Part shown: piece after piece, positions 1-58,080 of the stretch
How positions within the stretch are numbered: position 1 is the stretch's first letter
Layout: each line of letters opens with the position of its first letter
Source: Amoebophrya sp. A120
Lineage: Eukaryota; Protista; Dinoflagellata
Length of the DNA: 64,000 nucleotides
Reading direction: 5' to 3'
NCBI GenBank assembly: GCA_905178155.1
Contig: CAJINV010000002.1
Span: 10,148,146-10,212,145, forward strand
Translations under genes and position numbers: made by a program
The notes under the pieces: generated by a model
What the model was told of the DNA's origin: nothing
What the model saw: the letters and a program-made list of their open reading frames with translations, nothing else
Database searches by the model: none

Positions 1-200
1 CCATTATGGAAGCCGTTTGTCATGCTGTTTGGCCTAAAGGGGAGCTGTTTGCCATGCTGAACAACTAGACCCAGACGCCTCTGCCTAGGCTGGGTATCTG
101 GCCGCAGTGCCTTCTTGCAATACAAAGCGCATTTGTGTACACAAATCCAGCATCAGAAGTTCCGTTTTGATATGGGGAGGGGGGATTTTTCATTTTGATA
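1..200. mobile_element. Introner-like TIR element, family B (left end outside window), inside PRMT gene
   Basis: Ends TTCCGTTTTGATATGGGGAGGGGGGATTTTTCATTTTGATA, the same terminus as elements 27358-27668 and 42821-43152; PRMT coding (ILAMFAVQAGA) resumes right after. Confidence 0.85.
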
Positions 201-1957
201 GAATCCTCGCCATGTTCGCCGTGCAGGCCGGCGCGGCCAAGGTCTACGCGGTGGAGATGTTATCAAATGTAAAAATGTCTGGGTCTGGAAGAATGCAGCC
301 TGTCATGCTAAGTCTGCAACAAGCAAGAATCTGTGTTGCATGATTACCAAAAGTCGTCCAGTTTTGACCAAGTCGGGAAGGAGTTTCTCATGCAGGATAG
401 GCATGAGAGACATCGCACAGAATCTGTCATGCTAGGTCCTGCATTCCAGACCTCATGGGTCATGGAAAAGCTGCATGACAAACCGCTCACTCTTCCAGAC
501 CCAGACATTTTTACAATTGATAGATGTCGGATATCATCGAGATTGGAAAGGAGATAGTCGAGCTCAATTCAAGCAAAACCTATGAAGAGGGCGACTCGAG
601 GAACCAGTTTCAAGAAAGCGGGAATTATCGAATGCCGAGCGGTAGAAAAAGAAGGAGGAAGAAGGCGAAAAGCCAATACGACACAACATCATCACCCCTG
701 CACCACGATTATCGGTCGAAGATCGAGTTCTTCAAGTGCGATGCGCAGAAGCTACCGATCGATCGAAATTCCGTGGACATCATCATAAGCGAATGGATGG
801 GCTACCTGCTGCTGTACGAGAGCATGTGTGACGTGATTGTGAATTGCCGGGATCTGTACCTGAAGCCAGACGGCCTGATGTTTCCGGACCGGTGCTGCAT
901 CTACCTGGCCGGCTGCGACGACGCGAAAAAGTACCATGAGCAGGTCCAAAAGAAGTTCCCTTTGTCAGAAGCTTTGGAGAAAAATCAGCCAAGCCAAGCC
1001 AAGTTTATTTCTGACGACAAGAACAGTGCGAGACCGTTCACTGGACGAAAGGAAGGCGAAGTACATCAAGAATTTTCGAAGCTGCACCTTGAAGACCCCA
1101 CTCCCATCTCCTTTGCGCCTTTCACCTCCGAGCTGGTTTTCAAAAACGCGATCGTGGCGGAAGTGGAGCACCGGGAGCTGATTTCGACGCCCGCGCGAGT
1201 GTTCGACATCGATTTGCGGACGGTAACGGTGCCGGAGCTCGATTTCAAAACCGCCTTTGAACTGCAGGTCGTCGCTCCGACAAGCAGCAGCGAGCATGAC
1301 GAAAAGCACAAAACGCGCCACTTGCGCAGCTTTTGCGCCTGGTTCTCTTGCGGGTACAGCTGTTTGCCGAGGAAAATCGCAGAGGCAGAACCTTTCGCAG
1401 GGTCGAGTAGCAAAATAAAGGCGGGGAGCGGTAGAAAAGCGAAAAACGAAACGCGCGACATCATGCGCACGACGTCGGTTGTGGAGGAGGCGTTTTTGCA
1501 CGGCCCGATCTTCGACGACGAGGCTTTATTCGAAACGGATTTGGCCAACGTCGCGCTGCTCGGCGAGATCGAAACTGGTCTGGAGCAAGTGGAGGTGGAC
1601 CCACACGACGAAGCATCTAACAAACAGGATGCCGGGCCGGGTTCCGTTACTAGCAGGTCAACATCATCGTCCACCAAAGAGCCTCTCGTGCACCAGGAGA
1701 TACTTAACACATCGCCGCTCACACCGATGTCGCATTGGCGTCAGGTCTTGTTCTTCTTGGACCACGGACCCGCAAGGGCAAGCCTGGCCTTGCCGGAGAA
1801 GACCTTGATCAGGGGAAGTTTTTCTTTGCGGAAATTTTACGAGAACAACTACCGCGATCTGGTCATAGACATCGAGTATGAAGTTAGTGGCGTTGAGGTG
1901 GAGAAGTTAGAGGAGGATGTTGTTCGTAAGCGAAGTCAGCAGTTTTTTCTGCGATAA
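201..1957 (+). CDS. Type I protein arginine methyltransferase (PRMT1/3-like), 5' partial; exons ~201-260 and 528-1957
   Basis: Joined sequence ILAMFAVQAGAAKVYAVEMSDIIEIGKEIV; double-E loop VDIIISEWMGYLLLYESM; YLKPDGLMFPD; THW-like loop SHWRQ. Confidence 0.9.
261..522. mobile_element. Introner-like TIR element, family A (subfamily A1), 262 bp
   Basis: TIR TATCAAATGTAAAAATGTCTGGGTCTGGAAGA ... TCTTCCAGACCCAGACATTTTTACAATTGATA; direct repeat GATGT at 256-260 and 523-527; removal restores VEMSDI. Confidence 0.95.
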
Positions 1958-6562: not shown

Positions 6563-7530
6563 ATGGGCGCCCAGTGCTGCTGCGAGGGTCGAGGAAACAA
6601 ATCTTTCCGCAGCGATTCTTTCTTTTCCGCCGCTCCGACCGCTGGCGCGGAGTCTGCGCACCAGGGTTTTAACGCGCAGCAAACCATAGTGCCAGCGAAT
6701 GAGGCAAGAACGCAGAAAAACCAGGACCGAAAACAAGCGGTTCTCGCCGAGCAACAGGTGGTCGCTCCGCGCGGCTTGAAACACCAGGCGACCCTCCCGG
6801 TCACGGGGAAAAAGGGAAGCAAGGGAACGTCGTCTTTCAGAGTAGACAAAGCAACGACGTCCGCGCAGACACCGAGCCCGAACGCCTCCATGTGGCCGCA
6901 ACAATACGAGTCGGGAAGGGCGACTGCGCCAGTTTCCACGATGTCTTCGCAGAACTTCATCACTCAGAAAGGAGGAAAGATCAGTAGCATGATGACCGCC
7001 GGCGTCGACGTTCCTAACCGCAGAGATTTCGGCGAGACACAGTTTATGGTTGCCGACATGGCGATGCACGAGCCGGAATTGGCTAAGCAATGGGGCGTGG
7101 CCGGGGAACAGACGATAAGGTTTATGCACCCCTCGATGTACACCACGATGGGGGCAACGAAACGAAACTTCCTATCAACTGTAAAAATGTCTGGGCCTGG
7201 AAGATTCTGACACTTGTCATGCACGTTTTGCATGAGCCATGATGTCTGTGATGCGTACCCTAGCAATACAGATTTTTTGAGGGCTTTTTGATGCGTATTC
7301 CGCATGACAAATGCCTCCTCAGCGTAGCAAAAATTGCTTTTCCTTTCCTTTGGTACTCATGCAATACAAATTTTTTTGGAATCCAAATGCAGCATGACAA
7401 GTTGCAATCTTCCAGACCCAGACACTTTTACATTTGATACTTCCCGGGCGAGGACAACGCTAGGCTTCCGGCCGGAGAGTCCCGAGGGCAAGTAGAACTC
7501 GATAATTTTGCTGGCGGACAGAAACAGTAG
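6563..7530 (+). CDS. Hypothetical protein with probable N-myristoylation/palmitoylation start; exons 6563-7172 and 7445-7530
   Basis: Starts MGAQCCC; after removing the element the frame continues KRNFPGEDNARLPAGESRGQVELDNFAGGQKQ*. Confidence 0.7.
7173..7439. mobile_element. Introner-like TIR element, family A, 267 bp
   Basis: TATCAACTGTAAAAATGTCTGGGCCTGGAAGA ... TCTTCCAGACCCAGACACTTTTACATTTGATA; direct repeat CTTCC at 7168-7172 and 7440-7444; interior similar to 43219-43478. Confidence 0.93.
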
Positions 7531-16926: not shown

Positions 16927-19900
16927 ATGCCGCGGCAGCTGCTCGCCGCGAGCGAGCTGACATCGGAGCTGGCTGGGCAGAACGAAGATGGTTTTTCTCC
17001 CGTGTCGCCGACCCAAAATGGCAATAACCTGCTTCTCGGGGTTGACAACACGCTTCTGGCAGGTCGTGGTCTGCAGGGTTCGCGAGCGAACAGCAAACAG
17101 TCGCAGCGTCCTTCGGTAGGGGAAGACCAGCTGAAGGCGAAAATCGACATATTGGCGGCCAAAAACGCGGAGTCCCACCAGTTCGCGCCGGAGGTCACAC
17201 ACGAGTACGACGGGCACACGGCCAGGAGGGACAATGTTTTTTTCGGAAAGTCGGAATCCGCGTTCTTGATGCGGCGGGTGACTATCAAACACAGAAAAGC
17301 CACCAGCCTGTTTATGTATGGCGTGTCTAGTCTAGTACTGTCATGCAAAGAAAGCTTTTAGATGGAACAAGTTGAAATAAAGCGACAACGAGACCCGGCA
17401 CTTGGTAAGTAGTGAAACAACTACTAGCGTGCGCGGTTCATTCGAAGACCCTAGGACCACAGGCAACTCATTCATGCCGCCGACTGTACGAGCATACCGT
17501 AGAATTTCTGTTTGATAGCATTGAAGCATTTGTTTAAGCTGATTCTCTACATTTTCTTCATCGTGCTAATCTACTGCCTGATCCGCAATCCGGTCTCTAG
17601 TCCCAATTGTGACCAAATACCAAGAATCTACGTACATCTGGTATGGCCCGTTGAGATGTTGCAAGCTCTAGGGTTACTGACGTTTGTGATGCGAGGGTTA
17701 TTCGAGAAGCAAGGTATGAGATCGCTTTACATGTGGAATCAATTGGTCATGCGCTGTGGGTACGAAAGATCGTTCAGTACTCTTCACATTTTACAAACTG
17801 CCTCAGAAAGAATTGTGCACATCGATCTAGCACCTTGTAACACCTGCGCGGACCATAAATGGTGATCGATTATTTGCTGAAGGGTTTTGCGGTGGTCAAC
17901 TCGTTCGTCGTCAGCATATACACGATCAATCGCCCGCAAGTGCGGTTAAACAGCATGAAAAACATCGCGATTTTTATTGGCAGCTTCATGATCCCCTTCG
18001 GAGCCATGTCCAGCGTCGGAGTGCTATCAAAAGGAAAAGCGTCCCCGTGGTCCTCGCGCCAGAATGTAGACGATAAGTATTCCTCCGCAAGGCCGCCGTT
18101 GTATACGTTATGTAGTCTTGCATGAAGAAGGACAAAAGCACGTCGATGTGTGTCAGAACCTCACTATGCGATGTGGTAAATTTCTCAAGTTTGCATCGAT
18201 TCACAAAGCCAAGCCTTTTTTTTCTGCTGCCGGGAGGACATCATCAGAGCTTTCCGTTTCCATAGGCGATGCTGACCGGGAAACCGGACGCCGATGCCGC
18301 TTTCGGTCTGCCCTTCGTCTTTTTCATGTTCGGGTTCGGCGCTTATCTGCTCCACAGGGAAGGTAAAAGAGTCAAATGCCCCCGCGGCGTGGATCCACCA
18401 CTCTTCCGGAGACACAACAAAATACAGGCGCTGCTGTTTATCAAGGTAAAGACAGACAGCAATTGTTGCGGACACGACTTCAGATTTTCTAAACTTTGTA
18501 AGTACATTAGCACCGATTTTATTGATGATGAAATGAACAAAAACGTCACCGCAAAAAAAGTATAAAATGATGAACAACACGACAGATTGGGATAACGGCG
18601 TTTGCAGGGTACATGGCATGCATGATCTTTGCGGACAGATACGAGACGTGGACCAACGCCGTGAAGGATTCCTACAGGGAGGGGTTTGTCCTCATGTTCG
18701 CGGAGTGCCTTTTGGCGCTTCTGTTTTTCAGCATCATCATCCCCATCTACCAGCGGTCTTTGGCAAAAACCCTCACCCACTACTGGCACCTATACGAAGT
18801 GGACGGGAGGAGAAATCTGGCGCAGTAGAATTTTTGCTGCCTTTCTTCTATCTACCAAAAAAGAAAAAACTATTCAACATCAGACCAGATGACGATATTC
18901 GTATTGCATAATGGCAAAATATTGTTTAAGCCCAGACTTTGCAAGAACATGCAAAAATCCTCTCAGGTACGACCGCATTATGATCCAGTGGAACTTTTTT
19001 TTCGACGTGCTGAAGTTCTCATACGGACGCATGGTCCTGTTTAACGTGTCCAGCTACCTGGTGTTCTTCGGGATTATGTGGAAGGACATTTGCTACGCGC
19101 TGTGGCACTTCATGCTGAAGTTCGACCGGTGGGTGATCGCGCTGATTGTGAAGATTTTCAACAAAAACGGCGGGAATTCCTTCGCGGACGCGAACCTGTC
19201 GCCCACCTACAAGTACATGATCAAGACCATCGAGAGCACCGTGTACCTGATGGGCGTGCCGCGCATGCTGGTGCGGCAGTGGGAGCCGCTGTGCGACTTC
19301 ACGCATTTGGAGGTGGATCAGTCCATGCTGGACGACGAGGAGGACATGCTGCAGGTGTCCAATTTCATGCAAGGCAAGCAAAGCCCCCTGGAAATCGGCA
19401 AGCGTACGAGCATGGCGGAGGCCCTCGGGGCCTCGATGGGCGGGAAGCTGGTGAAGGCCCCGGACCCGACCGGGTTGGGACTAAGGCTCACGTTCGCGAA
19501 TGTCTCGGTCTGCATCCACAACCTGCCGGCGGAACTGAAGCAGGACATGCAGGATTTCAAGGTCGACAAAATGGACGAGGTATACGACGAGCGGGGGGAC
19601 GACAAATTCGGCGTGTACTCCGATCGGGATCAGGAAAGGAAGGAGAAGGCGGGCTCTTTGTTCGGGCGGGGGGCCAGCAGCGGCAGCGGAAACAACAAGA
19701 AAAAGAACAAACCCATGCCCGGGACCGGGACCATCCTCGAGCCAATTTACGAGGAGCCGGTCGCGCCGAGCGAGATGGTGCGCCTACAGTACGTGATCTC
19801 TTTCGTGCAAACCCAGGTCTTCATGCGCTTCCAAGTGCGAGCTGCGGCCAAACTTTTGACAAGGTATCTATTCGCTTCTTGTTGTGCAGTTTTGTTCCCC

Positions 19901-21350
19901 CGCATGGGCTGCTAAGATGCTGAACCCTAACATCCTGTCCATCTCATGGAGCAATATTGAGGCAAAAATAGCAGCATCTATAACGCGCAACAAGAACAAT
20001 CAAGTACCGTTTGTGAATAAAAATTCACAGCCTGGTGTTTGTCTTCATCCCGCTGATTTGCGAGGTCCTCGGGAATACGAAAAATAGTCCGAATTTTGTG
20101 TCGCTGTTCGAGACAGACGAGCCGGGCTACATCGGCAAGAAATCCGAGAAGTACGTGGTTGCCGGCATTTCGTTTCTCTTCGTGGACATTGTGGAATATC
20201 CCACAGAAAAAGACCGACAGGTCATATTTGTAATGCAGAAATAAATACACAGGAAAATCTGTCATGGGCGAAGCCATAACATCCTGTTTAGGGCATGCAA
20301 TACAGATTTTTTTGTCTATTTATTTTTGCATTACAAATATGACCTGTCGGTCTTTTTCTGGGGGATATGGAATGGATCGCAATCACGTACTTCGCCGCGC
20401 GGAGCTGTCAAGGCGGAATCGTCCAGAAATTGCGCTACTTCTACTATTTGCTGGTGAAGGATCCGAAACTATGCAAATGAAAACTACACTCGTTGTTTTC
20501 CTTTTCTCCCTCTGGCTGATTTGCTTTCGGGTGGGTTTTGAACGGCGATTGTCATTTCAGAGGTTGCCTTTCTGCGCTGCGTGTGGCATCATGATATCAA
20601 GGTGCAAAATGTGAGTAGTACCAATCTCAAGTTGTCTTGCACTCGCAGCTACAAAGCTCCGGATTTGTTGCGTTTTGTTGAAGTGTCCCACTATACCAGC
20701 AGGGGAAGAAGGAAATTGTTTGGTTCCATAGGAGACGAGCTATGCGATCATTTCCTACGGCCTGTTCATAGGGCTGTTTGCCGTGCAGTTTAAGTTCAAG
20801 CCGTTCCAGGGCGTGCAGAAGTTGAACTACCCCCACGGCACGGTGCAGGCGGGACAGGACCCGGAGGTGTGGCGCCGGAATTTCGACGGCCAGCTGCGTC
20901 CCTTCGGGTCCGTGGGGGTTTCCGCGGCCGCGGCGGCGGCGTCGAATGGGGCGTACGAGTACGTGCTCCCCATCGGGGACGGGCACAGCCCGGACACCAG
21001 CGTCGGCTGTATGGCTTGCTCAGCTGTTACAATCTCAACTCAAACGTTATAATAGAATCTGGAATTTTTCTTGCATGAACAGCATGAGTACCATACAGAG
21101 ACTTGGGCTTTTCGCAATACAAATTTCGCCAGATTCTGATGGGGTTTGGAGCTCCGAAACTTGTCATGCGCGCTCCAGTGGGAGTAGGCCAGATGTTGCG
21201 GATTTTGCAACACAAATTCCAAATTCTATTGTAACGTTTGAGATTGTAACACCTGAGCGGGTTATAGGCTGGAAACAGATGTTCTACTACTGTTTCGACA
21301 GCGGAAGTTTGGAACCCTGGGAAGACGTGCTAAAGACCCCGATTGTGTGA
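16927..21350 (+). CDS. Large multi-exon polytopic membrane protein, function unknown (possibly more than one gene)
   Basis: Series of GC3-rich hydrophobic exons (e.g. ~18968-19825); two TIR elements whose removal gives DIVEWIAITYF and TSVGWKQMFYYCFD...KTPIV*. Confidence 0.6.
20197..20367. mobile_element. Introner-like TIR element, family H, 171 bp, mostly hairpin
   Basis: TATCCCACAGAAAAAGACCGACAGGTCATATTTGTAATGCA ... TGCATTACAAATATGACCTGTCGGTCTTTTTCTGGGGGATA; direct repeat TGGAA at 20192-20196 and 20368-20372. Confidence 0.93.
21010..21266. mobile_element. Introner-like TIR element, family I, 257 bp
   Basis: TATGGCTTGCTCAGCTGTTACAATCTCAA ... TTGAGATTGTAACACCTGAGCGGGTTATA; direct repeat GGCTG at 21005-21009 and 21267-21271; frame restored. 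Confidence 0.92.
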
Positions 21351-22920: not shown

Positions 22921-23610
22921 ATGTCCAACATTACTGGTTCCGCGAGTTGGACCCCGGCTAGCTCGAGCTCGTTATGAAAGTGCACACTTCTCCGCCTCCC
23001 CGTGATTTGTGTTGCATGAACAGCAATACAAGCGTCAGCAAGAATACAGGTTTTGCATCACAAATTTGGACAGGCGTGTAGTGCTATTTGGGCTGCCAGA
23101 ACTTGTCATGCAAACAGTGCCAAGAGCCCAGGCCAGGCGTAAATTAGGCATTTTGCGCGACAAATGAGGGGGAGGGGGAGTTGTGCACTCTCATACCCGT
23201 CTCCTCCAGCGTACAAACCTGTGCACCAAAAAATGGATACAGCGACGGAGAGCAGCGAAATGATGAGAAACGCGAACAATCTTGAGCCAGTGCCAGCTGC
23301 TAGTGAACGAATTGACCGCGGTACTGGGACTGGAAGGCATGATCCTGGTCGTGTGACGGCTCAAAATACTACATCAACCACAGGCAACTACAGATTCTAC
23401 CCACCCCGCAACACGCTCCGCGGGAAAATATGGGAGTTGCTGGAAATCCGCACACGACAGGAAGAGAGTATGCTTCTGCTCTCTTTCTTCGCCGCCTTTG
23501 TCGGGATAAGCGTTATGATTATCACGACGTATTTCCTGGACGACATGGGGCTCACCGCGGAAGAACACGACTCGCTGAGACAAGAATTGTTCCATTTACA
23601 CCATATCTGA
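22921..23610 (+). CDS. Hypothetical small single-pass membrane protein; exons 22921-22972 and 23201-23610 (3' end may splice further)
   Basis: ATG at 22921 joins in frame to ORF 23164-23610 after element removal (MSNITGSASWTPASSSSSPPAYKPV); TM segment MLLLSFFAAFVGISVMIITTYFL. Confidence 0.65.
22973..23195. mobile_element. Introner-like TIR element, family J, 223 bp
   Basis: TATGAAAGTGCACACTTCTCCGCCTCCCC ... GGGGGAGGGGGAGTTGTGCACTCTCATA; imperfect direct repeat CTCGT (22968-22972) / CCCGT (23196-23200). Confidence 0.85.
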
Positions 23611-24178
23611 TACATACGCAAATCAAAAAAACAATTAGACTGCAGCTGCATGATGCAACCAAAGCCGCTAAGCGACGCCATCTTCAATGCGTTCGGAAAA
23701 AAGCACGATATCGAAGTTCCTGCATCGATCTTAGAAGCAGCTGACAACAGAAAGCTCGATGTTCTGGTTGTTTCTTCCTTGTCGTCCGTGGAGACTGAGA
23801 GGCCTGATGTTTGCAAAGATTTCTCTGAGGCGATACGCCTTTGAAGGAGAGGTGGCCCCACGACGTATGCTTTCGTAGAGAATGAGAGCACGGAGATGAG
23901 CGCCTGTGCGACTGACGAGGTTGGGTTCGCAGAGGCAATGTGGTCACAGAGTCGAGGGAACAACCTCTCTTGCTGGCCTGTACTGAGATTTGACGTGCCG
24001 CGCTTGCAGTCTACAACAGATGTTACCATGGCAGACACTGAAATACAGAACACATCAAACTTGACTTCTCGCCTCGTGTGGTATATATAAATTACCAGTT
24101 TCAAAAATATGAATATCAGAATTGAGCGGGCAAATTGTAATTGCATAATTGACAGAGACAGAGAGCAAAAACTACATC

Positions 24179-40246: not shown

Positions 40247-43200
40247 ATGGGCCAGGAGCAAATCCCGACGTCAGAGTTTACCAAAAACATCAGCACGCCG
40301 ATGGAAAACGAAAAGCAAGGGTCCTCGGAGAGTCTCCTTCCCTTGCAGGAGGATCCTCAAACGGCCATGCACGGTGCGGATTCTAAAAATCACGATATCA
40401 ATATCTCACATAATTCCACCGCGATTCTGATTCCCCCCTCCTTTCGTGTGTCCGTCGCGAATATGGTTACCGGGGACCTACTGCCCAATGTAGAGGAAAA
40501 GGTCTGGGAAAGCTCTGCCACTACTGTTAAGGACCTGCGGCACTTTATCGCCGAGGAGCTGAACCGCCGGAATGCGCTGCTCGACTTGGAAGAGGAAAAA
40601 GCGCAGCAGCAGCTCCGGGTCACGCAAGGAAAAGAGTTTTCACCGACGTGTTCCCCGAGTGCTAGCACTTCTTCACCGAGTGGCCGCTGGCAGCGATCCT
40701 CGACTCCGCTTGAGGATACCAGTACCTTTCAGACCGTGGCTCCTACTTCCACTGAAACCAACACGAGCTGCTCCAGCGTGTCAAGTCCACCAATAACTAC
40801 CACTCCGTCCTCTCGTCCGGCTTCGGGAGGATTTTTTTCCTCGTCTGTACGGGCGACGACGGGGCAAATGCAGGATTGTCCGGCCGGCACCGATGTTGAG
40901 CAGTCTTGTGCGTACAAGAAGCGACAAATCCACTGGGAGCACATAATTTTGCTCATGGCTCCACCCGGTTCTGCGGAAGGAAGTGAGGACCAGGATGACA
41001 CGGAACAGGTGGAAGATGGGGATGTTGACGAAGATTTCTCTGAAAATGAGGATATCTCCTCGGTCTTCTCCTCGGAAAAAGAAGACCAACAGATCACGAG
41101 TAGTTCTCTGCCCAGACGTGCCGTCGACGACGCTGGCGACCTCGGATCATTCATAACGCCTTGTGACGGCGCTCTCGAAAGCGGCGGGCCAAAAGCGGCT
41201 CATGCAGGGACCACAAGTGACAGTCCTGCCTCTGCAAGCGACGAGGTAGGCTCGGCATTGCGGCAACTCGGAGAACAGGAGGCGATGGATGCTGAGAAAA
41301 GCAATTGCAAGCTGCTTGACTGGATTTTATCGTGGACAACAACGACTTCATCTTCAAAGAGCAAGGGTGCAGCGGTACAACTGCCATCGATAGATTGTTC
41401 TGACGTGCGAATGAAGGTGGCACGTCACAAGAGCTCCAGCGTCGTCGACTCTATGGAAGTGGATTCCACCGCGGTCGGTGAGCTTTCTCTGAGTGGTTCA
41501 GTTTGTCAACTACATCAGGCTAAGAACAACCCAGGAGCGGACATATCGGCGGCAACCGAGAAGAACGTACTGCACTCTGGAGCCGTCGCCGTGTCGTGTT
41601 TGCTACTTGAGCCCGACACAAATTTTGCAGCGCCAGAAAGAAAAAACGAGGTTCGGGCATTGAAAAAGTTCTCGGAGCCGTGGTCCTGCTCGACGAAGTG
41701 TGGTTCTTCAAGCGAGGGTGCTGCAACATGCACCACCAGTGCTGGCACTAGCTCCGGCAGCAGCCCGAAGACTGCTATCGTGGAAGCGTCGTCGTTGACT
41801 AAAGTTTCTCCATCCTCCTCGCTCACGCTTTCGAGCGAGGAAGAATTAGATCCCGTCGACGGCGCGCGGACAGAAAGAACGACCACCGGCGACGCCTTGC
41901 GCAAGAGAAAACAAGACGAGTCTGGAAGTACCAAGGACGCGCTTGTCGGCACCTCCGAGAAGAAGAACAAGACAGAGGAGTTGGCCGGTGGTCGGGCTGC
42001 AGAGAAAGCCTCCCGTTCTTGCAACATCCTCCTCGCGCCGTCAGTTGCGCAGACGGACGCAGAGCGGAGAGAAATAGAAATCGAAATCGAAAACAACAAG
42101 CAGACTTCAAGACTGGCTGCTGGATCATTGAAAGACACAAGTGCAATAGTTGCATCAGCGTCGTCTACTGTTCCTCCTCCTGCTGTACTGTCACCCGCAC
42201 GACAATTAGGACCACCTCCCGTTTTCCATCTGTCTTACTGCGTCCGTCAGTGGAAGGAGTTTGAATCCTATCGCAAGAAAAAGGTGTTACAGTTACACAT
42301 TGTGTTGCAAGACCGGCAACACAGACAACCAGTCGCATGCAGGAAATGCTTGGGAGGCTCGTTTCCTTCCTGTTTTCCCTTATGATCTTCGCATTACAAG
42401 TTTTCTCTGCCACACAGAGAAAATCTGTGGTGCAGAAACTCCAACAAGTGTGTAACTGTATCACTTTTTTCTCGTGATAAGTCCCGGGCGGAGCTGAATG
42501 CCGCCCTCGAACCCTTCCGTGGTCCCTGGGACCCCATGGAGCCCTATTGGGACCGCGAGGACCCCGTGGACTTGATGCAGCAGCGGGTGGACGAATACTC
42601 GGAGGAGGAGAAGCGGAAGATTGAGGAGGAAAAAGCGAAATTTCAACAGATCTACGGGCCGCTCCGCGTGTGGGACGTGTCCAAGATCCAGAACTTCGCC
42701 TCCCTGTTCTCCCGCCGGCCCTTGTTCAACTGCGACATCAGCGGGTGGGACACCAGCAGCGCCGTGGACATGCACTGCATGTTCTCCCGGGCGTTCAGCT
42801 TCAACCGGCCGCTGAACGATTATCAAAAGGAAAAATCCCCCCTCCCCATACTGAAAAGGTATGTTTCTAAAGAATTTGTGATGCTGATTTGTGACCACAA
42901 ATCCTGTCTCTCTTGCAAGAGGGCAAACTCAGAGACTCCGCCACGGTATGCAGGCGATTTGTAATGCTGCAAGGCCGATAGGGCAGACGTCTGCCATGCT
43001 AGGCCCCTCCACTAAGAGGCCCCCCCTTAGGCTTGTTACGATCTGCGTGCAGTCCTTTACTGCAAGACAAACGTGATTTGTGTACTCAAATACAGCAACA
43101 CAGATTAAGATTTCCGTTTTGATATGGGGAGGGGGGATTTTTCTTCTTGATAACGACTGGGACGTGTCCAAGGTGGTGGACATGGCGGGCATGTTCCACG

Positions 43201-44027
43201 AGGCGCTGCGGTTCAACCTATGGATTGCAAAAATGTCTGGGTCTGGAAGAGTCGGGACTTGTCATGCACATTTTGCATGACCCGTGAGGTCTGTGATGCT
43301 GGTGCTAGCATCACAGATTTTTTGAGAGCTTCTTGATGCTAATTACGCATGAGAAATTCCCTCTTCGCGTGCCAAGAACTGACTCCTCTTGCTGCTCATG
43401 CAACACAGATATTTTGAGAATCCGCAGACAGCATTACAAGCTGCATTCTTCCATACCCAGACATTTTTACATTTGATACAACCAGGACCTGTCCAATTGG
43501 GACGTTTCCTCGGTGGAAACGATGAAGGCCATGTTCATGGCCGCGGAGAAGTTCGACCAGAAAGTCAGCTCCTACAGCTGGGACGTGAGCTATCAAAAGT
43601 AAAAATGTCTGGGTCTGGGAACTGGTGATGCTGGGTAGCGTCTCAGGATGAGGCTACAAATGCTGGCTCAGCATGACAAGTTTCTGAGCTCCTAGGCGTT
43701 GCCTATTGTGCATGACACACTGCGCTTCTGCATCACAGAAAAGCGGAGCTTTTGGGTAACGTGCATGACAGATTTAAGAGTCATGCCAGACAAACATGAA
43801 TTCTTCCAGACCCAGACATTTTTACATTTGATATGAGCCGGGTGCAAACGATGCAGTACATGTTCAACGACGCGTACGCCTTCCACGACGGGGACCTGCT
43901 GGAGCAGTGGGAGCCCCACTTTCTGCGCCTCTTCGGAAACTGCACCCAGAAGGCGATCGGGGACGTCTTCCACGGCTCCAAGATCTACTGGACCCGCATT
44001 CAGTTTCTCACCGTCGGCCACGCCTGA
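40247..44027 (+). CDS. Protein with C-terminal DUF285/BspA-type surface repeats, interrupted by four TIR elements
   Basis: Reconstructed repeats FNCDISGWDTSSAVDMHCMF, FNRPLNDWDVSKVVDMAGMF, FNQDLSNWDVSSVETMKAMF, WDVSRVQTMQYMF. Confidence 0.85.
42269..42479. mobile_element. Introner-like TIR element, family E, 211 bp
   Basis: TATCGCAAGAAAAAGGTGTTACAGTTACACA ... TGTGTAACTGTATCACTTTTTTCTCGTGATA; imperfect direct repeat AATCC (42264-42268) / AGTCC (42480-42484); frame restored to KEFESRAEL. Confidence 0.9.
42821..43152. mobile_element. Introner-like TIR element, family B, 332 bp
   Basis: TATCAAAAGGAAAAATCCCCCCTCCCCATA ... TATGGGGAGGGGGGATTTTTCTTCTTGATA; imperfect direct repeat ACGAT (42816-42820) / ACGAC (43153-43157); frame restored to PLNDWDVS. 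Confidence 0.92.
43219..43478. mobile_element. Introner-like TIR element, family A, 260 bp
   Basis: TATGGATTGCAAAAATGTCTGGGTCTGGAAGA ... ACCCAGACATTTTTACATTTGATA; direct repeat CAACC at 43214-43218 and 43479-43483; restores FNQDLSNW. Confidence 0.95.
43591..43833. mobile_element. Introner-like TIR element, family A, 243 bp
   Basis: TATCAAAAGTAAAAATGTCTGGGTCTGG ... CCAGACCCAGACATTTTTACATTTGATA; direct repeat TGAGC at 43586-43590 and 43834-43838; restores WDVSRVQTM. Confidence 0.95.
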
Positions 44028-47900: not shown

Positions 47901-50328
47901 GCAGCGCGTCTCCGTGCAGACGCTGCAAAATCGGTTTATCGATGGCAAGCACGTCCCCGCGCCCACCGTGCAGGACAGCTTCCGGTTCACGAGCGTGTTC
48001 GAATCGCTCTTGATTCTGCAACTGCTCTCCCGGCTGGTGTTGGAGCCGAGGTGGAAGCGCATCTTTCTCTTCGAGCCGCGGTACCACGCCATCATACCCA
48101 ACAGCCTGCACGGCACGAATTTCGTGCGGTTGCTCCTCTGCGCTGTCGCCACGGCCACGTGGCCCGAGGCCCGCGAGGCTGCGGCGACGCTCGCGAACCT
48201 GTGCTGGATGGGCGACATGCGGTGCGAGCGCCTGTTCTGCTGGCTGAAGTTCGACTCTCCCACCAACGTCGGCGTGGACAGTAGCGGGGTGTTGAATCCA
48301 CTCACCATTGGCCAGCCGCGGCCACTGGAGCTCGGCCGGGGCATGTACCGGCGGTCGTGGGGCACGGAGTTCGTTGAGGGCTCGGCGATCATATATGCAT
48401 TGCAAAAATGTCTGGGTCTGGAAACTTCTCATGCTAAAAGTGAATGGGAGACGCACTGCAATACGCAGCTATGCATGACAAATTTTTTGGCTCCCATGTC
48501 TTACGTATTCCGCATGGCAAACTGCGCTTTTGCATGACAGGTAAGAGGGCCCCCTCTTCGTGCCTATGCAACACAGATTCTCGAGTCATGCCAGACAAAC
48601 ATGACAAACTTGCATTCTTCCAGACCCAGACATTTTTGCATTTGATATCATACTGCACCCCACCACGGTGTCGCCCACGAAAATTCCCGCGGCCCTAACG
48701 TCGGCCAGCCCCGGGTCTACCTTTACGAACTCAAACGGCAGCTTTGGAACGCTCCTCCAGGCGAACCTGAAAACGGCGCACCTGGCCAACCGGCACTGGA
48801 CCCTGCACTGCTGGTTCTACTGGGACCCGGTGGACATGCTGCGCGACGCCGGCCCGCCGCAGGGTGCGGACGACGGTCCGGAGGAAGCGGGTGGTGCAGC
48901 CACAACGGCGCAGGGAGGTAGTAATCCTGGTGGCGCAACTACTACAACCACTGCAGGCAATTATCTTCTGACCATGGTGCTGCTCCAAACGCACCCGAAG
49001 CAACACCAGACGCTGATAAAATTTGCGATCGCGAAAGAATCCACCGGGTTGCAAACGTCGAGCAGCTTCTTTGGGTTCGGGTCCTCCCGCGCTGGCAACC
49101 AGCAGCCCGAGCAGCAGTACCAGCTGAAAATCGTTCTGAAAGACGTCCGCGGGGGCGAGCAAGTGGTCGATGTGCAGCCGAAATTGACGCAAGGGTGGCA
49201 CCGATTTGCGCTGGTGTCCTCTATATGGATTGCAAAAGTGTCTGGGTCTGGAAGATTGCAACTTGTCATGCTAAATCCGAATCATGCAAAAATGAAAATC
49301 TGTGTTGCATGGGTGCCAAAAGCTGTCCACTTTCGACCAAGTTGGGAGGGAGTTTCCCATGCAGGATAGGCATGATAGAGACCCCACAGACTCTGTCATG
49401 CTAGGTCCCGCATTCCAGACCTCAAGGGTCATGGAAAACCTGCATGTCAAGATTACACTCTTCCAGACCCAGACATATTTGCAATCCATACTCTACCCCC
49501 GACGCGTACGCGAACGCGTACAACGGGTGCACGATCTACATCGACGATTGGACGCAAAAATTGTCGCCGCAGACGTTTCTGCGCAACGACTTTTATCTGC
49601 TGGGGAACGACACCGCGGGACAGGAGCCGTTTGGCGGACTGGCCGATTTCCGGATCTACGCGCGCACCCTGAAGGAAGCGGAGTTGGAACTTCTGCTGCA
49701 TCCGCCGCTGTTCGGAAGTAAAACCGAGAAGTCCATCGCGGTCGACAGCCGAGGGAAGCAACCGCAGCCGGAGCTGGATCCACCGAAGGGCGTGCCGACC
49801 GATGTGCCTGCGGAGAACTACTTTCCCGACCAGATTGTGCGGATGTTGCGGGACTGCGGCAGCGTGAAAATTCTCGCCAGCCGGCTGAACGTCGCGGACA
49901 CTGCGGCCGAATGCTTACGGGTGTTGTATCAAATGCAAAAATGTCTGGGTCTGGAAGAATGGGCGACTTGTCATGCAGCTTTTCCATGAGCCATGAGGTC
50001 TGTAATGCAGGACCTAGCATGACATATTCTGTGCGATCTCTCTCATGCCTATCCTGCATGAGAAACTCCCTCCCGACTTGGTCAAAACTGGACGACTTTT
50101 GGTAATCATTCAACACAGACTTTTGCATGCTTCAGATTTAGCATGACAGGTTGCATTCTTCCAGACCCAGACATTTTTCCGTTTGATATGTTGGGCACGC
50201 TCGCGACGTTGCAAGAAGCGCGGAGCGAGATCTTCGGTATCTGTGGACCGAAAATCCTCGAGCTCAGCGAGTCCCCCCTGCCCATGATAAAACGCCAAGC
50301 TGCTCGGGTTCTTCACAATTTGAGATGA
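44937..50328 (+). CDS. Large protein: probable N-myristoylation, helical (ARM-like) region, C-terminal concanavalin A/LamG-like domain
   Basis: Starts MGNAAA; GT-AG introns 45888-46138 and 46505-46662 in phase 0; three TIR elements; LamG-like motifs WTLHCWF, WHRFALV, TIYIDD, LLGN, FGGLADFRIYARTLKEAEL. Confidence 0.75.
48394..48647. mobile_element. Introner-like TIR element, family A (A2, inverted relative to 24923-25174), 254 bp
   Basis: TATGCATTGCAAAAATGTCTGGGTCTGGAA ... TTCCAGACCCAGACATTTTTGCATTTGATA; direct repeat TCATA at 48389-48393 and 48648-48652; restores SAIILHPTTVSPT. Confidence 0.95.
49224..49490. mobile_element. Introner-like TIR element, family A (A1, same orientation as 261-522), 267 bp
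   Basis: TATGGATTGCAAAAGTGTCTGGGTCTGGAAGA ... TCTTCCAGACCCAGACATATTTGCAATCCATA; direct repeat CTCTA at 49219-49223 and 49491-49495; restores LVSSTPDAY. Confidence 0.95.
49927..50188. mobile_element. Introner-like TIR element, family A (A1, inverted relative to 261-522), 262 bp
   Basis: TATCAAATGCAAAAATGTCTGGGTCTGGAAGA ... CCAGACCCAGACATTTTTCCGTTTGATA; direct repeat TGTTG at 49922-49926 and 50189-50193; restores LRVLGTLATL. Confidence 0.95.
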
Positions 50329-51606
50329 TCATGATTGTAAATGATCACGTCGTGCGCGGAAACCGATGCTCCTTTCTGCCATCCCTTAGTTAGTATGTTT
50401 TCTTTTCCGCATGAAACGCTGCGCGCATGGGCATGATATTTTTCACTTCACACTTTCACAGCAAGAATTTAGATATTTATACAAAAATACGAATCATTGG
50501 ATCAAGCAGATCAAGACTAGGTGTTTCCATTCGCTCAACGCTTGAATACTTCAAACAAAAATCCAGATATACTTCGCTAGATCAGAAAGTCTTCTATTGG
50601 TATTGCCTTGCTTGATCGAAATAAAATAACACTCACTCACAGAAATGGAAGTAAAAAGCACAGAAAAATGGCTTCGATAAACTTTGGATGCACCATCGAG
50701 ACTCCGTGTAATTAACATTTGGCGCAACTAACAAGTTCCAACTGCAAAACTTGTGCGGATAAGAATGAAAATTCAGATCTTCAGCCGGCGATCCTTCACA
50801 ATCGGCTTATTGCGGGTCCCAGCATACGACGGATTCTTGTTCTTTTCCAATGTCTGACGACTCCGATCATTCAAGGTGTAGATTCTCAACGTCGCTGGGA
50901 TCTACTTCCTGGAAAGAACAAGATTGAATTTAGTTTTAGTGGAAATCGGAATACTAGAAGCTAAAATAAACCCCTATACTGTGATGTTGACGCCAGGCAC
51001 CAAGAGATGCAGAGACATCAAGATTCCTCGCAAACATGTACGATGATTTAAGGTGGACCTGTATCCTCAAATGAAACTCATTGTCATGCTCCTCTAGAGG
51101 CAAATTGCGGAAAACGAAAAGCCACGACCGCGACCGATTGCGCCCCGGACCTAGTTGTTGCGCCTGCTCTGCCCGACGCGGAGAGATCAACATCCAGACG
51201 AGGAGAGCAAAAAAAGCGACAAGGATAATGTGTGTGGCTACGGGACCGAAAGCGAATCTGAGCTTTGTTTAGCACCAGGCGATCGACCTCAAAAACAACG
51301 AAGCAAGTCGGCGAAAGATATTCAATCGTCAGCAGTAGAGTACTAGGAAGCAAGTTTTCATTCTCAACAGCCGGCGCAATTCTCGAAATATCTTCGCCAA
51401 GCTTGTCCGCCGACTTCCGTCGTCCAAGCAGTAGCAGCAGAAGTGCAGTTCTTGCGGTTCGACAAATTGATCCCGCGCTACTGCGAGCAAGCTAAACTTG
51501 AGTACTTGCGACGTGTCTCTCACCAGTGTAACAAGTAGTCACCCGCCTAGTAGACGAAGAACGCTCCTCCTAGTAGCCCCCCGCGACGACGACGACCAAG
51601 TCCAAG

Positions 51607-54545
51607 ATGTCTCCGCCCCTCGCTCCCCCCCACAACATCCACCTGTTCGAGTCGATATGCATTGCAAAAGCATCGTACTCGTATAAATGCATTACAAATT
51701 TCCTCAGCATGAGAAATATAATTTGTGATGCAGATTTGCCTTGGAAACAAGATTTGTATTGCAAGACTTGCATTTGTACGAGTACGATACTTTCGCACAG
51801 GATAGTCGAGCTACAAGGTCGACTACGACGATGTGGATGTGAAAATCACAAGTGTGATATCCTAAGGAAAAACATCCCCACCCCAAAGTCAAGATGGGGA
51901 TTTTGCAACACAAACCTGGAAGTTTTGGGAGCCACGCATGACAAATTGCAGGCTGTATTGTAGTGCAGTTTAGCAAGGGAAGTCGCATTACAAATCCAGC
52001 TGCTTTATGCAGTTTACAGCATTACAAGTCCGAAACACGATTGGAAATGCCTATCATGGTGATGCGCATTACAAATGCTCTTGTGCTTGCAGATCTGCAT
52101 GACAAGAACTCATAGGTGGGGATGTCTTTACACAGGATATGTGAACGACAAGACGATCACGTTCACGCTCGAGGGCTGCGACACCAGCACGGCCAACGCG
52201 CTGCGCAGGATACTGATGGCGGAAATCTACACCATGGCAATAGATCTGGTCACCATCTACGAAAACAATTCGGTCCTGTTCGACGAATTCATAGCGCACC
52301 GGCTCGGCCTGATCCCGCTCGAGTCCAACGGGATCGGCGACATCCTCTCCGACCACGGCGAGGAGCGAAAACGGATCACACAAAAAATACACAACAGCAT
52401 GAATCTGAGTATTCAAATGTTAAATTGATTCAGACCTTTGTCCTTCATTCGATTACGTTTATGTCGTTGCTTTGCATTAATCCAAGTACCATGGAATGGT
52501 CGTGTTCCGGCAATTATGCACTTTCTGACATGTCATGGTTAACGCCTGCGTCTTTACAACCATCACTTCAAAACACGACAATGAGCCGCGCACCTGAAAC
52601 ATAAAGATGAAAATATTAAAAACAGCTGCAGAACAGAAAGCCTTTGAGAGCGCGCGTAACGATCTCGGGATTACTTATGCGGTTGCATCCATCGATGACC
52701 CAAGCAGGGGCGGTTGTGACTGCAGCGGTGGGTGCCCAAGGTGTGAAGTGAAGTTTGAGATCGACGTGGAGAATTTTTCGGGGCACCCGATGGACGTCAC
52801 GCACTTCGACCTGAAACTGGTGCACAATCCTGCAGAGGACGAGACAAGCCTCAGACCGTATAGAGAAGACATTTAACTGTTCGCGTTCAACCTCAGACCG
52901 TTTTGGAGATATGTTCACCTGTTCCCTAACACAGTAAATGAGATTTGTTTGAAGTGTTCTTTGCATCTTTTTTCGGCATTACGAACAACCGTCAAGGAGT
53001 GTGGAAAGAGACCTGATGCTTATTTACAGAAAAAATTGATTTCAAAACAGCCAGCGGGCATTCCAAGTCCTTCCAATGCCGCAAAGGGATCCCCTCTACA
53101 GTGAAGAAGATGACAGAAAAAGAAACGGTAAGTCGTACAATTTTTTTGCACCTACCACTTCATGTGCAATGACAAAGCAGCGGTTTTTTTGATAGATGAG
53201 TGTTACGCCCAGCTTCAACACAAAGCTCCTTGAATTCCCTATCTTACCAAAAACTACAGGCATCAAAATCGTGAAGCTCCAACACGGGCAGAAGTTGAAG
53301 CTGGAAGCCACGGCCATCAAGAATAACGCCAAATTCCACGCCAAGCACAATCCAACAGGGACAGTGTGTATGAAGCAGGACGCCGACGTCAGAATAAATG
53401 AGAACACAAAGGTATAGAGCTTTGTTTCATTTTTTCACGACGGCGCGCGATCCAAGTTCGTGATCGTGGAAAAATAAATGAATTAAGTACAGCGATGGAA
53501 TGAACCAACTAGATGCGCTGTAGAGTAAGTAGTTCGCCATAACCGTGAGGGCGAAGTGTGGGGTTGTATGAAGAGTTTCAAAAGCCGAAAATTCTCTCAC
53601 AGTTCCACCCTACTCTGGAGCAGAAGCGCGACATTGCAAAGTCCTGCCCGCAAGGGGTCTTCGACTTGGAAGATATGGGAAAATTGGTTGTCGCTAACGA
53701 GGACCGGTGTATCCACTGCGACAGTTGCACGGACTACTGTACAGAAAACAACATAAAAGGCTACGTCACGATTGACCACCACCCCAGGAGGTTCCATTTC
53801 GAGGTCGAATCCACGGGCGCGAAGCATCCCGCTGCCATAGTCAAAGCAGGTACTTAGTGTGTTTTTTAGAAGAAAATACTATCCACGACGAAGATCTAGA
53901 TCATTTCGATTTTTTCTTCTGCAAGAACTTTTATTCGTTCTCGTCGTAGAAAGCGGTCTAATTGATATAAGTAGTAATTTGCAAGAGGAAGAACAATCCG
54001 ACTCAAACCTCCACAGGCCTGCGCATCTGGAAGGACAAGCTTTTCCACTTCAAGAGGGACATCAAGCGCCTTCATTCAGACATTGCGGATCTTGGTACCG
54101 AGGGTATGCCATTAGGCTTCGCCATTATGGACCAGAGTGCGCAGGGCGGATCGGCACGAGGCGACGAAAATATGTCCTCTCAAGGAATGGAATTCACTTC
54201 GATGGGCACAGCATCGCAGGGCACCGGCGCTCCAATAAACGTCTCTCAGGCTCCCTCCGTCGTCGAGAGCAGCGCGCACAGGCAGAGGGTTCGCCCACGA
54301 TTTGGACCGCCGGGGAGCGCTGGCATGGAGAGCGAGTATTTTGATTTGATTTTTTAATTAATATGAAAATTTATTAACCTTCGTGCATTTTCTCAATACC
54401 AATACTTAGACTTACAAGACACCACATGTCGTTTTCATTCGATGAAAGAACATATGCAGAATACGAAAAAAAAATCGAATTGACTAACAGCGCGGGCTCC
54501 CAGGCTATGGACATCGACGACGACGTCGACGACGACGAGATTTAA
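51607..54545 (+). CDS. RPB3: RNA polymerase II subunit RPB3; two TIR elements plus several GT-AG introns
   Basis: FTLEGCDTSTANALRRILMAEIYTMAIDLV, NNSVLFDEFIAHRLGLIPL, Zn loop CDCSGGCPRC, IVKLQHGQKL, HAKHNP, FHFEVESTGA; some internal junctions and the last exon inferred. Confidence 0.9.
51656..51804. mobile_element. Introner-like TIR element, family F, 149 bp
   Basis: TATGCATTGCAAAAGCATCGTACTCGTATAAATGCA ... TGCATTTGTACGAGTACGATACTTTCGCACAGGATA; direct repeat GTCGA at 51651-51655 and 51805-51809; restores LFESSYKVDY. Confidence 0.92.
51858..52139. mobile_element. Introner-like TIR element, family C, 282 bp
   Basis: TATCCTAAGGAAAAACATCCCCACC ... GGTGGGGATGTCTTTACACAGGATA; direct repeat TGTGA at 51853-51857 and 52140-52144; restores KITSVNDKTITF. 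Confidence 0.95.
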
Positions 54546-56024
54546 AACTACAGCTTCCTCCAGGCTGCACCAGTTTTCTGAGCCAAGATCACAAGTTTTT
54601 TTCACCGACCGAAAGGGAAAGAGTGTAATAGAGCTGCAGCAAAGCCTGCTCGTGCTCTACTTCCGACGATGAAGATGCGCGACATCTTCTGCGCGACCCG
54701 ACGTTCTTTAATCCATCATCAAGATGCTCTATGTTCATCCGTTTATTGCTCCGCGTAGTTCATCACAAGACAAGATTTTTACGGAAAGTTCACAAAAACG
54801 ACTGTCCAGCTAGTAGGACAGAAAGCACAACAGATTTACTTATTAAGTTTCAGGTTTACATCATCGTCAGTATCGCAGGAGCTCAGGCGGAAAACAAAAA
54901 CAATTAGACGAAGGCGAAGCCGCGCATTTGTTAGTGAATACTATCGCTGCGGTCGTCTCATGGAATTTTTTAAAGTAAGTCGAGGGAACGGGACGCCGAG
55001 AGTAATACTCGCGGAATTTTCAGAAGCTGTGTGCTGCGGAATGCACAAACGGATTGATTTCCAGCCTGAATTATGATCAAAGTATACTATTTCTGCGCTG
55101 GAAGCAGAGCAGCTTTCGTTTCTCTTTCTTCACGCTGCGGTGACGAGCGAACTGAGGTTCGAGGTTTTCTTTTTGAATAGCCGACGACAAGTTCTTTGCT
55201 GATGATTCCACAACTTTTGCCAGTTTTCAGCCGAAGCCGTACCATTGGACCTCGAAGGAGAAGATGAAAACGAAAAGAAAATCAGGGAAGAAAAAGAAAG
55301 AACAATCTAAGTAGAACCTACGGCATTGTCAGCTTGGTGGCCAGGGGCCGCGGCCCACATTCTTCGACCCGGCCAGGAGTTCCCCTGCTTCTACAGGAAA
55401 AAAGGAAAAGTTCAAGTTGTGAAACCTTAAAGAAAATGGCTTGTTCGGCCGCAATCTCCATTCTATCTTTCAGGGAAAGAGTTCGGAAGATTCAGATCAA
55501 CGAATGATATTGTAGTTCCCGAATGCAAGCCGTGATCATGGATCGCAAAATGTAAGCGAAAATGGCGCTACAAGAATCAGAAGTGGTGATCAGTACATCT
55601 GTTGCCCCGCATTCAACCATTTTGGTGGAAGGGCAGTTTCTTCTGTGCCGAATGTTGCTCACCTTTGCGTATGCCTTTCAAACATACAACAGCAGTCGAG
55701 TAAATAAGATTTCAACTCTGTAGCTTCGTCTTGTTCTACGATAGGCAGTTTGATTTTGTCGAAGACACACCAATTTTACCTCACCAACCTTTTCTCATAT
55801 CACCTTCTTTATTGGCTCATCATCAATAAAAGTTGTTGGTGCCCCAAGGACAAGGTGGTTCTTTGTATACTTCTTCACCATCTAACGAATAAGCGTCGCT
55901 TGACAACTACGACAAAGTAAGTAACCTGATTCATCAAGTAGTAACTCGATTTCATTTGTATATTGGTTTGGAGCGGTCCACGACCAGGAGCAGCAAAACG
56001 TCACTCGGCGGGAAAAACCAGAAA

Positions 56025-58080
56025 ATGTTGTTGGGTGAGCAGCAAACCGAAAGGGACGACGACATAGTTGTCACGGACAAGAAGTCGTTCGAAACTTCCA
56101 AGGAACAACCAGCTCCGCAAAAGAAGGTTTCGAAGGGCGTTCTTTCCGAGGCGTCCACCACCGCGAGCGCCGACGACGGCTTGGAAGATCCGGAACCCTT
56201 CACCTGGGTGGACTGGGTGTGCTGGTACGTGGTCAGCTGGGGATTTCTGCTGCGGTTCCAGAAGGGGTTCTTGAAGATCCGGATGCCGAACGGCGTCCTC
56301 CACACCTTCGGGGACCACCGCAGCGATTTGCAGTGCGAGTTGCAGGTGTTCCGCCCCCGGCTGTTCCGCCGGTTTTTGTTGGGGGAAAGCATCGGCATGG
56401 CGGAGTCCTACATGGACGGGGACTGGACGTGCGAGGATTTGACGTCCTTCGTGGCGCTGGTGCTCGAGCAGGACAAGGCGGGCGTCCTCGTCGGGCTGCC
56501 CTACGTGAAGGAGATCGAGATCAAGGTGCGCTCCCTGTACAACTACCTCTTCCGCGCGGGCTACCACTTCGAGTTCTCGCTTGCCAACGTGCAGCAGCAC
56601 TACGACATTGGGAATGACCTGTACGAGCGGATGCTGGACCCGTCCACCTTCAGCTACACCTGCGCACTGTACCGCAACCCCTTCGCGGACCAGCATTTTA
56701 TCGCCGCCTCGCAGTTCGGCAAGGACATGTCCGGGAAGAACGAATTAACCCACCAGGCCTACAAGTCCATTTCGCTGGACCAGGCGCAGCTGAACAAGAT
56801 CCATTTATTGATCAAGAAGGGCAACATATCCAGGAAAAAAACTGTGTAAGTGTAACTTTCTTTGAGGAACAGCATCACAAATTTGCTCCGAGTGTGATGG
56901 TGATGGCTTCGGTCCGCCTGACTCCGCGACCCGGTGGCCTGACCATCTGCGGAAAGGTGCCCTATGGGTTGCGTTTGTGGTTTCGGTCGGTTTAGCATCA
57001 CAAATTTGCTCTACATGACAGAGAAAACCTGTCATGCATGGTTTGTAAGGGAAAATACACATGAAAAGAGGACTTCATGGCTGTCTGGGATGACAGGCGT
57101 AACTCTGTTGCATCTTCTGCAACACAAATTTACACTTACACAGTTTTTTTCTTGCATACAACATCCAGAGGCACCACCGCGTGCTGGAGCTCGGGTGCGG
57201 GTTCGGCGGGTTCTCCTGCGAACTGGCCAAGCAGGTGGGCTGTCGCGTGGACTGCTACAACCTCTCGGTGGAGCAACTCGCACTCGCGCGCGCCCGCGCG
57301 AAGAAAGCGGGCGTGGAGCACCTGATCAACTACATGCACGACGACTACCGCGCCTGCGTGCACTACTACCCGACCAAGGAGGACGAGGTACTGCGGGACG
57401 GCGTCAAGTCGGAACTGTCGGACCGCCGCAAGACGGGGAGCGCGCGCAATCTGTGGAACCAGTACGACGTGATCGTGTCCATCGGTATGCTGGAGCACGT
57501 GGGGCACAACGACCTGGTGGTGTTCTTCGAGACCTGTGACCGCATGCTGAAGCCGGGCGGCACGGCGGTGGTCCACACCATCACGTCCAACGATTTCGGG
57601 TACGAGCACCACAAGGTGACCTACGGTTTCATCCAGAAGTACATCTTCCCGGGCGCCTGCATTCCGGCGGTCGGGGCCATCGTGGCGGCCGCCACCGGTC
57701 ATTCCAAGTTTGAGCTGCAACACTTCGAGAACATTGGCCAGCACTACGCGCCGACGCTGCGCCACTGGCGGGAGAATTTCTACCGCAACTTGGACGAGAT
57801 TATGGCACTGAAGGACGAGAACACGGGCAAGCCGAAGTACGACAGCAAGTTTATCCGCATGTGGGACTTCTACCTGTGCAACTGCGAGGCGGAGTTCATC
57901 ACGGGGCACTTCGGACTGGGCCAGTTCGTGTGGAAACGCCCCAGTTCGGAGTACACCGACAAGGCGGCGCGCGACCGCATCATCCCGGTGCTGCCCTCGC
58001 TGTCTGCGCTCCCGGATGACGAGGTTGACACCTACGGAAACGTCGTGGCATCACTGTCTGGTTCCAAGAAAACGGAGTAG
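56025..58080 (+). CDS. Cyclopropane-fatty-acyl-phospholipid synthase family methyltransferase; exons 56025-56826 and 57164-58080
   Basis: GESIGMAESYMDGDW, NVQQHYDIGNDLY, SYTCA, VLELGCGFGG, IVSIGMLEHVG, FIQKYIFPG, HYAPTLRHW, RMWDFYL. Confidence 0.92.
56827..57158. mobile_element. Introner-like TIR element, family G, 332 bp
   Basis: TATCCAGGAAAAAAACTGTGTAAGTGTAA ... TTACACTTACACAGTTTTTTTCTTGCATA; direct repeat CAACA at 56822-56826 and 57159-57163; restores KKGNIQRHHRVLELGCG. Confidence 0.95.

Follow-up and report, generated by a model that had tools for sequence, protein, structure and literature searches.

The analysed DNA, hereafter the window, is a stretch of 64,000 nucleotides of Amoebophrya sp. 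A120 (contig CAJINV010000002.1, positions 10,148,146 to 10,212,145), in which nine genes carry short elements that begin with TAT, end with ATA and are flanked by 5-bp direct repeats. Each element is designated below by the position of its first base. The window was scanned for TAT...ATA segments of 60-3000 bp having a 5-bp flanking repeat with at most one mismatch and an end match of at least 13/20. Exactly 19 elements were found, ranging from 149 to 332 bp, 16 with perfect repeats and three with one mismatch, which agrees with the counts of an earlier note on this DNA; the latter also listed one partial copy (1-200), which resembles elements 27358 and 42821. The same scan gave 0-4 matches in each of 30 order-3 Markov sequences, and at an end match of at least 15/20 none of the other 63 terminal trimers exceeded four matches, vs. 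19 for TAT.

Recomputation gave the frameshift previously claimed for 15 of the 19 elements if kept, while stops interrupt each of the three forward frames of the remaining four. Deletion of an element together with 5 nt, i.e. one copy of its repeat, had been said to restore the frame: 17 of the 19 indeed lie inside long + strand open reading frames (ORFs) once this is done, and the frame holding 20197 and 21010 opens only after one GT-AG intron and one element missing from the first list are deleted as well. The count of nine genes is correct, since one contig joins 24923 with 27358, 27725 and 28098. Coding sequence, delimited by hand, represents a share of about 0.59 of the window, and the strict scan gave no intergenic element there. 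A metagenome scan provided 149 stretches (the 80 listed among them all from one assembly), of which 146 loci (480 kb) were used, with 320 element calls, 242 of them having perfect repeats. There, 186 of 226 elements are flanked on either side by a coding-like frame, but a few of the remaining 40 look non-coding; the earlier statement that none is intergenic stands for the strict scan of the window only. Near-full-length relatives were present in these loci for 18 of the 20 elements queried, and an Rfam search of the window gave no match.

Clustering distributed the elements among 9 to 11 families according to the threshold, the largest with eight members, which brackets the ten first proposed. 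These families had been described as unrelated, a view that no longer stands: all 19 elements share the TAT start and an internal TTGT[CGA]ATGC motif, and most have an A-run at positions 11-14 of both ends (it is missing from 21010, 22973 and 28098). The motif, spotted by eye, has 39 copies in the 4,928 bp of elements vs. one in the 57,920 bp outside, and occurs in 269 of 285 metagenome elements, a set enriched for one family. Variants of the first nine bases are common to several families, and family members occur in both orientations, in the window as well as in the metagenome loci. Taken from the sequences, these features suggest that all 19 elements belong to one superfamily. Being short, with terminal inverted repeats (TIRs), a 5-bp repeat and no ORF, they have the characters of miniature inverted-repeat transposable elements (MITEs), i.e. 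of non-autonomous TIR elements.

Concerning their removal, the single rule put forward in the earlier note agrees with the assembled contigs: at all 11 bridged elements (eight read directly, three by summed length), presumed-RNA contigs lack the element plus 5 nt. This count spans 19900-28900 and 41500-58000, with elements 261 and 7173 falling outside. Over 19900-28900, the seven strict-scan elements are all skipped by exactly their length plus 5, each in one or more of four presumed-RNA contig sets (X3-X5 from one sample, X9 from a second sample of the same study), and three GT-AG introns are skipped by the same contigs. Over 41500-58000, one contig loses 850 bases (835 + 15) across 42821, 43219 and 43591 together; six other elements are unbridged among the contigs listed there, which is evidence neither way. 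Two points weigh against this result, namely that the RNA status of the four sets is a guess of the tool used, and that contigs drop rare isoforms. As for the raw RNA runs X11 and X12, 10 and 3 reads were placed, all on elements, and are uninformative on these genes. Neither the deposited A120 protein nor two orthologues are interrupted at 56827, a comparison of insertion sites at the protein level only; no orthologous DNA of element sites was found among the metagenome loci. At the offset proposed below, no removed element is GT-AG, and 24923 and 43591, which align to each other in opposite orientations, are both removed. One removal machinery common to all families tested, to both orientations and to one copy without a repeat is thus well supported.

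Two other origins of these joints were weighed. A hairpin between short direct repeats is the classic setting of template-switch artefacts, and element sequence does occur in RNA contigs; reverse transcriptase might therefore have jumped across RNAs that retain the elements. This is hardly credible: the main path of the contigs is the joined one, at depths reaching 78, elements kept in the RNA would shift or stop the reading frame in all 19 cases, 20470 is joined with a weak hairpin and no repeat, and the orthologous proteins are colinear across 56827. Excision from DNA during part of the life cycle, as for the internal eliminated sequences of ciliates, can also produce the precise loss of an element and one repeat. 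It is very improbable here, since all eight long contigs among those listed for a DNA-like run enter elements and none jumps one, and since the asymmetric offset follows the transcript strand and therefore fits RNA processing.

The position of the cuts cannot be read from perfect repeats; mismatched repeats reveal it. Transcripts of 22973 and 42269 keep the left copy at repeat position 2, and that of 42821, under leftmost placement, apparently the right copy at position 5. The joint of the decayed element 20470 is unambiguous, the transcript being made of left positions 1-4 and right position 5 (informative at left 2 and 4 and at right 5); it was found without the motif, yet TAT starts at the second base of the skipped stretch and ATA is followed by the last four. 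One offset, N-TAT...ATA-NNNN, accommodates the six informative positions, which come from four elements, and the cuts likely lie one base upstream of TAT and four bases downstream of ATA.

Several observations limit this placement. The cut after position 4 is fixed by one old element only, the younger ones allowing positions 2-4, and the intron of 20470 ends in AG and so may be atypical; the call at 42821 depends on the leftmost placement of the tool. In a codon-likelihood test on the 43 of 58 metagenome elements with one or two mismatches that passed strand and frame filters, position 4 scored -5.3 vs. +7.1 for position 5; the gap stems from a single case, weakly framed and with a stop in its right copy, in whose absence the two positions tie. 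At position 4 itself, on the other hand, the exon base is more likely that of the left copy in 10 of 12 cases. Intron phases 0, 1 and 2 number 88, 45 and 59 if the cut falls after position 4 (p = 5e-4), a bias that fits this placement, but a cut after position 1 gives identical phases. The predominant non-canonical ends in Table S4 of Farhat et al. (2021, PMC7789003) have T at +2 in 18 of 18 cases, which fits the proposed offset and the mirror offset as well. Moreover, an aligner-like choice reproduces a GT/AT and AG/AC pattern resembling the published family counts, which no single offset does.

It may then be asked whether the element plus 5 nt is truly removed with the cut falling anywhere within the repeat. 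The legend of Fig. 3 of that paper gives the intron border as unknown and, together with that of Fig. S23, positions varying by 1-5 nt, and the codon-likelihood test has its one contrary case. We nevertheless hold a variable cut to be rather unlikely, as six of six informative positions in four elements match one offset, and as the published variability can be ascribed to the ambiguity of alignments inside repeats. A resolved removal mechanism for Amoebophrya appeared in no title or abstract of the literature searched, and no fixed offset is stated in the passages considered of PMC7789003, PMC11282704, PMC9860276, PMC11453091 and PMC12787238.

The first list had missed one element with RNA support and likely three more. 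The former, 20470-20730, was exposed by contig joints: it is a decayed element with a scrambled repeat and very weak end pairing (score of 5 vs. 16-28 in the others), whose TAT is not paired with ATA in the predicted fold. This decayed copy is a hybrid that ends in AG. In the gene starting at 16927, three decayed candidates (17283, 17642 and 18025), chosen by the motif and without RNA support, are likely missed elements on sequence grounds: deleting their length plus 5 opens 312 codons, vs. 119-124 codons with plus 3, 4, 6 or 7. Searches for the spliced protein of this gene yielded no more than a read-through of a related strain, in unspliced form. That strain (P0010) also has the 17283-17517 element in this place; its ends are conserved, whereas its interior has diverged and is longer, the exons being about 99% identical.

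Elements of the window, with the evidence for each (a > b, last and first exon bases of a contig joint; runs, contig sets showing it)
Feature	Coordinates	Flanking repeat	Gene	Evidence
Partial element, right end only	1..200		PRMT gene	Sequence match to 27358 and 42821
Element	261..522	GATGT	PRMT gene	Scan and ORF
Element	7173..7439	CTTCC		Scan and ORF
Likely decayed element	17283..17517	GTGAC/GCATT		ORF support only; present in related strain too
Likely decayed element	17642..17857	TCTGG/AATGG		ORF support only
Likely decayed element	18025..18264	AGTGC/GGCGA		ORF support only
Element	20197..20367	TGGAA		Joint 20191>20368 (176 = 171+5), 2/4 runs
Decayed element	20470..20730	GAAAC/GGAGA		Joint 20468>20735, intron 20469-20734, 3/4 runs
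Element	21010..21266	GGCTG		Joint 21004>21267 (262), 1/4 runs
Element	22973..23195	CTCGT/CCCGT		Joint 22969>23198 (228), 4/4 runs; left copy at repeat position 2
Element	24923..25174	TGGAG		Joint skipping 257, 4/4 runs
Element	27358..27668	GCAGC		Joint skipping 316, 4/4 runs
Element	27725..28006	TGACA		Joint skipping 287, 4/4 runs
Element	28098..28408	TCCGC		Joint skipping 316, 4/4 runs
Element	42269..42479	AATCC/AGTCC		Contig joint 42265>42482 (216 = 211+5); left copy at position 2
Element	42821..43152	ACGAT/ACGAC		Summed length shows removal; position 5 apparently from right copy (piece ends at 42814)
Element	43219..43478	CAACC		Removal by summed length
Element	43591..43833	TGAGC		Summed length shows removal; right boundary visible
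Element	48394..48647	TCATA		Scan and ORF
Element	49224..49490	CTCTA		Scan and ORF
Element	49927..50188	TGTTG		Scan and ORF
Element	51656..51804	GTCGA	RPB3-like gene (presumed)	Scan and ORF
Element	51858..52139	TGTGA	Gene of 51656 (RPB3-like, presumed)	Scan and ORF
Element	56827..57158	CAACA	CMAS-like methyltransferase gene	Proteins colinear across site

The gene of 51656 and 51858, which gave no Pfam match, is taken by us to be RPB3-like from its resemblance. The gene carrying four elements has a DUF285 repeat region at 42485-42817, and one contig of about 4.7 kb (24068-28776, extending to 28949) unites apparently separate ORFs through four introners and GT-AG introns. GC-rich stretches (0.63-0.69) lie at 2300-4300 and 33000-34000, without a convincing + strand gene.

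As for the origin of the elements, no long transposase-bearing copy was found in the 480 kb of metagenome loci or in the viral contigs, in which two end patterns were searched without a match, a point against the reading favoured below; the common mobiliser assumed in the earlier note is putative, while its common removal machinery is well supported. Three genuine longer copies were found, in loci L016 (505-1608, 1104 bp), L068 (5024-5995, 972 bp) and L044 (3862-4492, 631 bp), with family ends, perfect 5-bp repeats and unrelated-looking interiors; seven open frames from the 1104- and 972-bp copies gave no transposase match in Pfam. A 6.2-kb TAT...ATA segment with a perfect repeat in L066 was rejected as a chance pairing between inner repeats that belong to two short elements lying on either side of host genes; other long pairings enclose separate short elements. 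Elements 20197-20367 and 27358-27668 have a second TAT...ATA pair 28 bp inside their ends, suggestive of tandem end units, e.g. repeated transposase sites. Also, the interior of a 394-bp main-family element (L078, 692-802) shares 78% identity over 114 bp with the non-coding stretch 21434-21544 of the window, which lies downstream of the 18893 gene and is either captured sequence or a small separate repeat.

Ginger transposons, which end in TGT..ACA and have an integrase-like transposase, were rejected as a match for the TAT..ATA termini of the window. An A120 family described in parts of Gozashti et al. (2025, PMC12130899), family 38, is a TIR element of about 810 bp with Copia/Gypsy integrase-like homology, annotated as 'Ginger, 5-bp TSD, TA/TA termini' (TSD, target site duplication) and lacking Ginger termini by that account; 41 of the 58 A120 rows of their Dataset S2 were covered. 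Compared by description only, it shares with the window elements the 5-bp duplication and the TA/TA termini, and differs in that no window element has a coding region; it is a candidate relative of the mobiliser. IS3EU elements have termini beginning with TAY (TAYGG..CCRTA in rust fungi, in the passage considered of PMC12730594), and the window elements likewise have TAY..RTA termini. IS3EU was not retained as a match, with a 6-bp duplication vs. 5 bp throughout the window and transcripts that lose the element plus 5 nt.

The class of the elements is known, since Farhat et al. (2021) described these elements in strain A120. According to the sections considered of their paper (PMC7789003), A120 harbours 29,850 introner elements, assigned to 1,954 families; their inverted repeats open with TAT, followed by seven variable bases and a run of three A or more, and their direct repeats measure 3-5 nt. 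The window elements share with them the host strain, the TAT start followed in most cases by N7 and an A-run, the inverted repeats, the direct repeats at the boundaries, a size of about 240 nt, repetition in the genome, the lack of a transposase and an RNA-supported removal that is not GT-AG. The introner identity claimed earlier is borne out by this motif and by exon 57163-58077, which matches a protein bearing the name Amoebophrya sp. A120 at 100% identity (80% for the A25 orthologue). Relative to the text sections of that paper, where repeats measure 3-5 nt and the border is unknown, every repeat in the window measures 5 nt and the cut appears to be constant; the shared internal motif and the orientation independence are features of the window that those sections do not give. 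The GT-AG ends of U2-type spliceosomal introns are not found in the elements. In the introners of Polarella and Symbiodinium, as presented in parts of Roy et al. (bioRxiv 2020.10.14.339549), splice sites are likewise recruited from target duplications, and some classes function in both orientations; unlike the window elements, which keep neither, they retain G(T/C/A)-AG ends. The same parts of this preprint do not mention Amoebophrya.

A tested analogue is offered by the nonconventional introns of Euglena, described in the passages considered of Nomura et al. (2025, PMC12501133) as N3-CDG...CHG-N5-6 with a purine at the exon start. Both systems have a proposed MITE-like origin, a paired terminal triplet, fixed asymmetric spacers and coexisting GT-AG introns; they differ in the triplets (TAT/ATA vs. 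CDG/CHG), the spacers (inferred 1 and 4 nt vs. 3 and 5-6 nt) and the lineage, which is unrelated. The window elements work like Euglena introns but are not members of that class. From this likeness, the same elements and offset could be served by a dedicated, non-spliceosomal endonuclease and ligase measuring from the paired ends. In its favour, removal shows no requirement for GT, AG or a given orientation, the spacers of the Euglena introns have a comparable asymmetry (3 nt ahead of the paired triplet and 5-6 nt behind it) and the passages cited favour non-spliceosomal factors for them, no U1 small nuclear RNA (snRNA) was found in A120 according to PMC7789003, and end positions 8-20 are complementary at 76-98% in metagenome copies, which were chosen for their end match. 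Against it, 20470 is removed despite very weak end pairing and ends in AG, and T at +2 agrees with canonical donors. We regard it as possible, at a tentative level.

The spliceosome, probably in an altered form, is ranked a little ahead of such a dedicated system, by a weak inference. It may read TAT as +2 to +4 of the 5' site with +1 left free, because the offset puts TAT at those positions, where the canonical introns of the window mostly carry TA(C/T): five of the seven examined begin GTA(C/T). The 3' site would be placed by its distance from the paired end. For A120, 83 of 89 spliceosomal proteins are reported, together with U2, U4, U5 and U6 and without U1 snRNA, in the sections cited of Farhat et al. 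(PMC7789003). What stands against a spliceosomal removal is that G at +1, AG and a branch point are absent from the elements, that TAT would be paired with ATA, and that TAT is conserved for transposition anyway. One of the canonical introns, 54336-54490, ends with TGACTAACAG, in which a branch-point consensus immediately abuts the AG, which is not so in the other six examined.

On balance, we favour the reading that the elements are A120 introners, likely non-autonomous DNA transposons of one superfamily, lost from transcripts with one 5-nt repeat by cuts likely at 1 and 4 nt, probably through an altered spliceosome. A transposase supplied in trans, plausibly integrase-related, would bind the shared ends and the internal motif, and its insertion would leave the 5-bp duplication. 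Removal, as observed in the contigs at 11 elements and one decayed copy, takes out the element and 5 nt without the need for GT, AG, a given orientation or an intact repeat. As the offsets of 1 and 4 nt add up to the length of the duplication, the original coding sequence would be restored, and any exon would therefore tolerate an insertion. It is somewhat probable, in our estimate, that A120 uses one sequence-blind code, N-TAT...ATA-NNNN, with offsets summing to the 5-bp duplication, so that insertions in either orientation would be perfect introns from birth and old copies would still be spliced after the decay of repeat and hairpin, as a second independent origin of a Euglena-like spacer-measuring code.

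The element class itself being already known, the present analysis adds a candidate rule for exact splicing, together with a shared motif. The TTGT[CGA]ATGC motif may serve as a probe for the transposase. If true, the fixed offset would allow the exact placement of tens of thousands of A120 junctions, would explain how insertions into exons are harmless, and would show where branch points or circle junctions should be sought, thereby separating the spliceosome from a new machinery.

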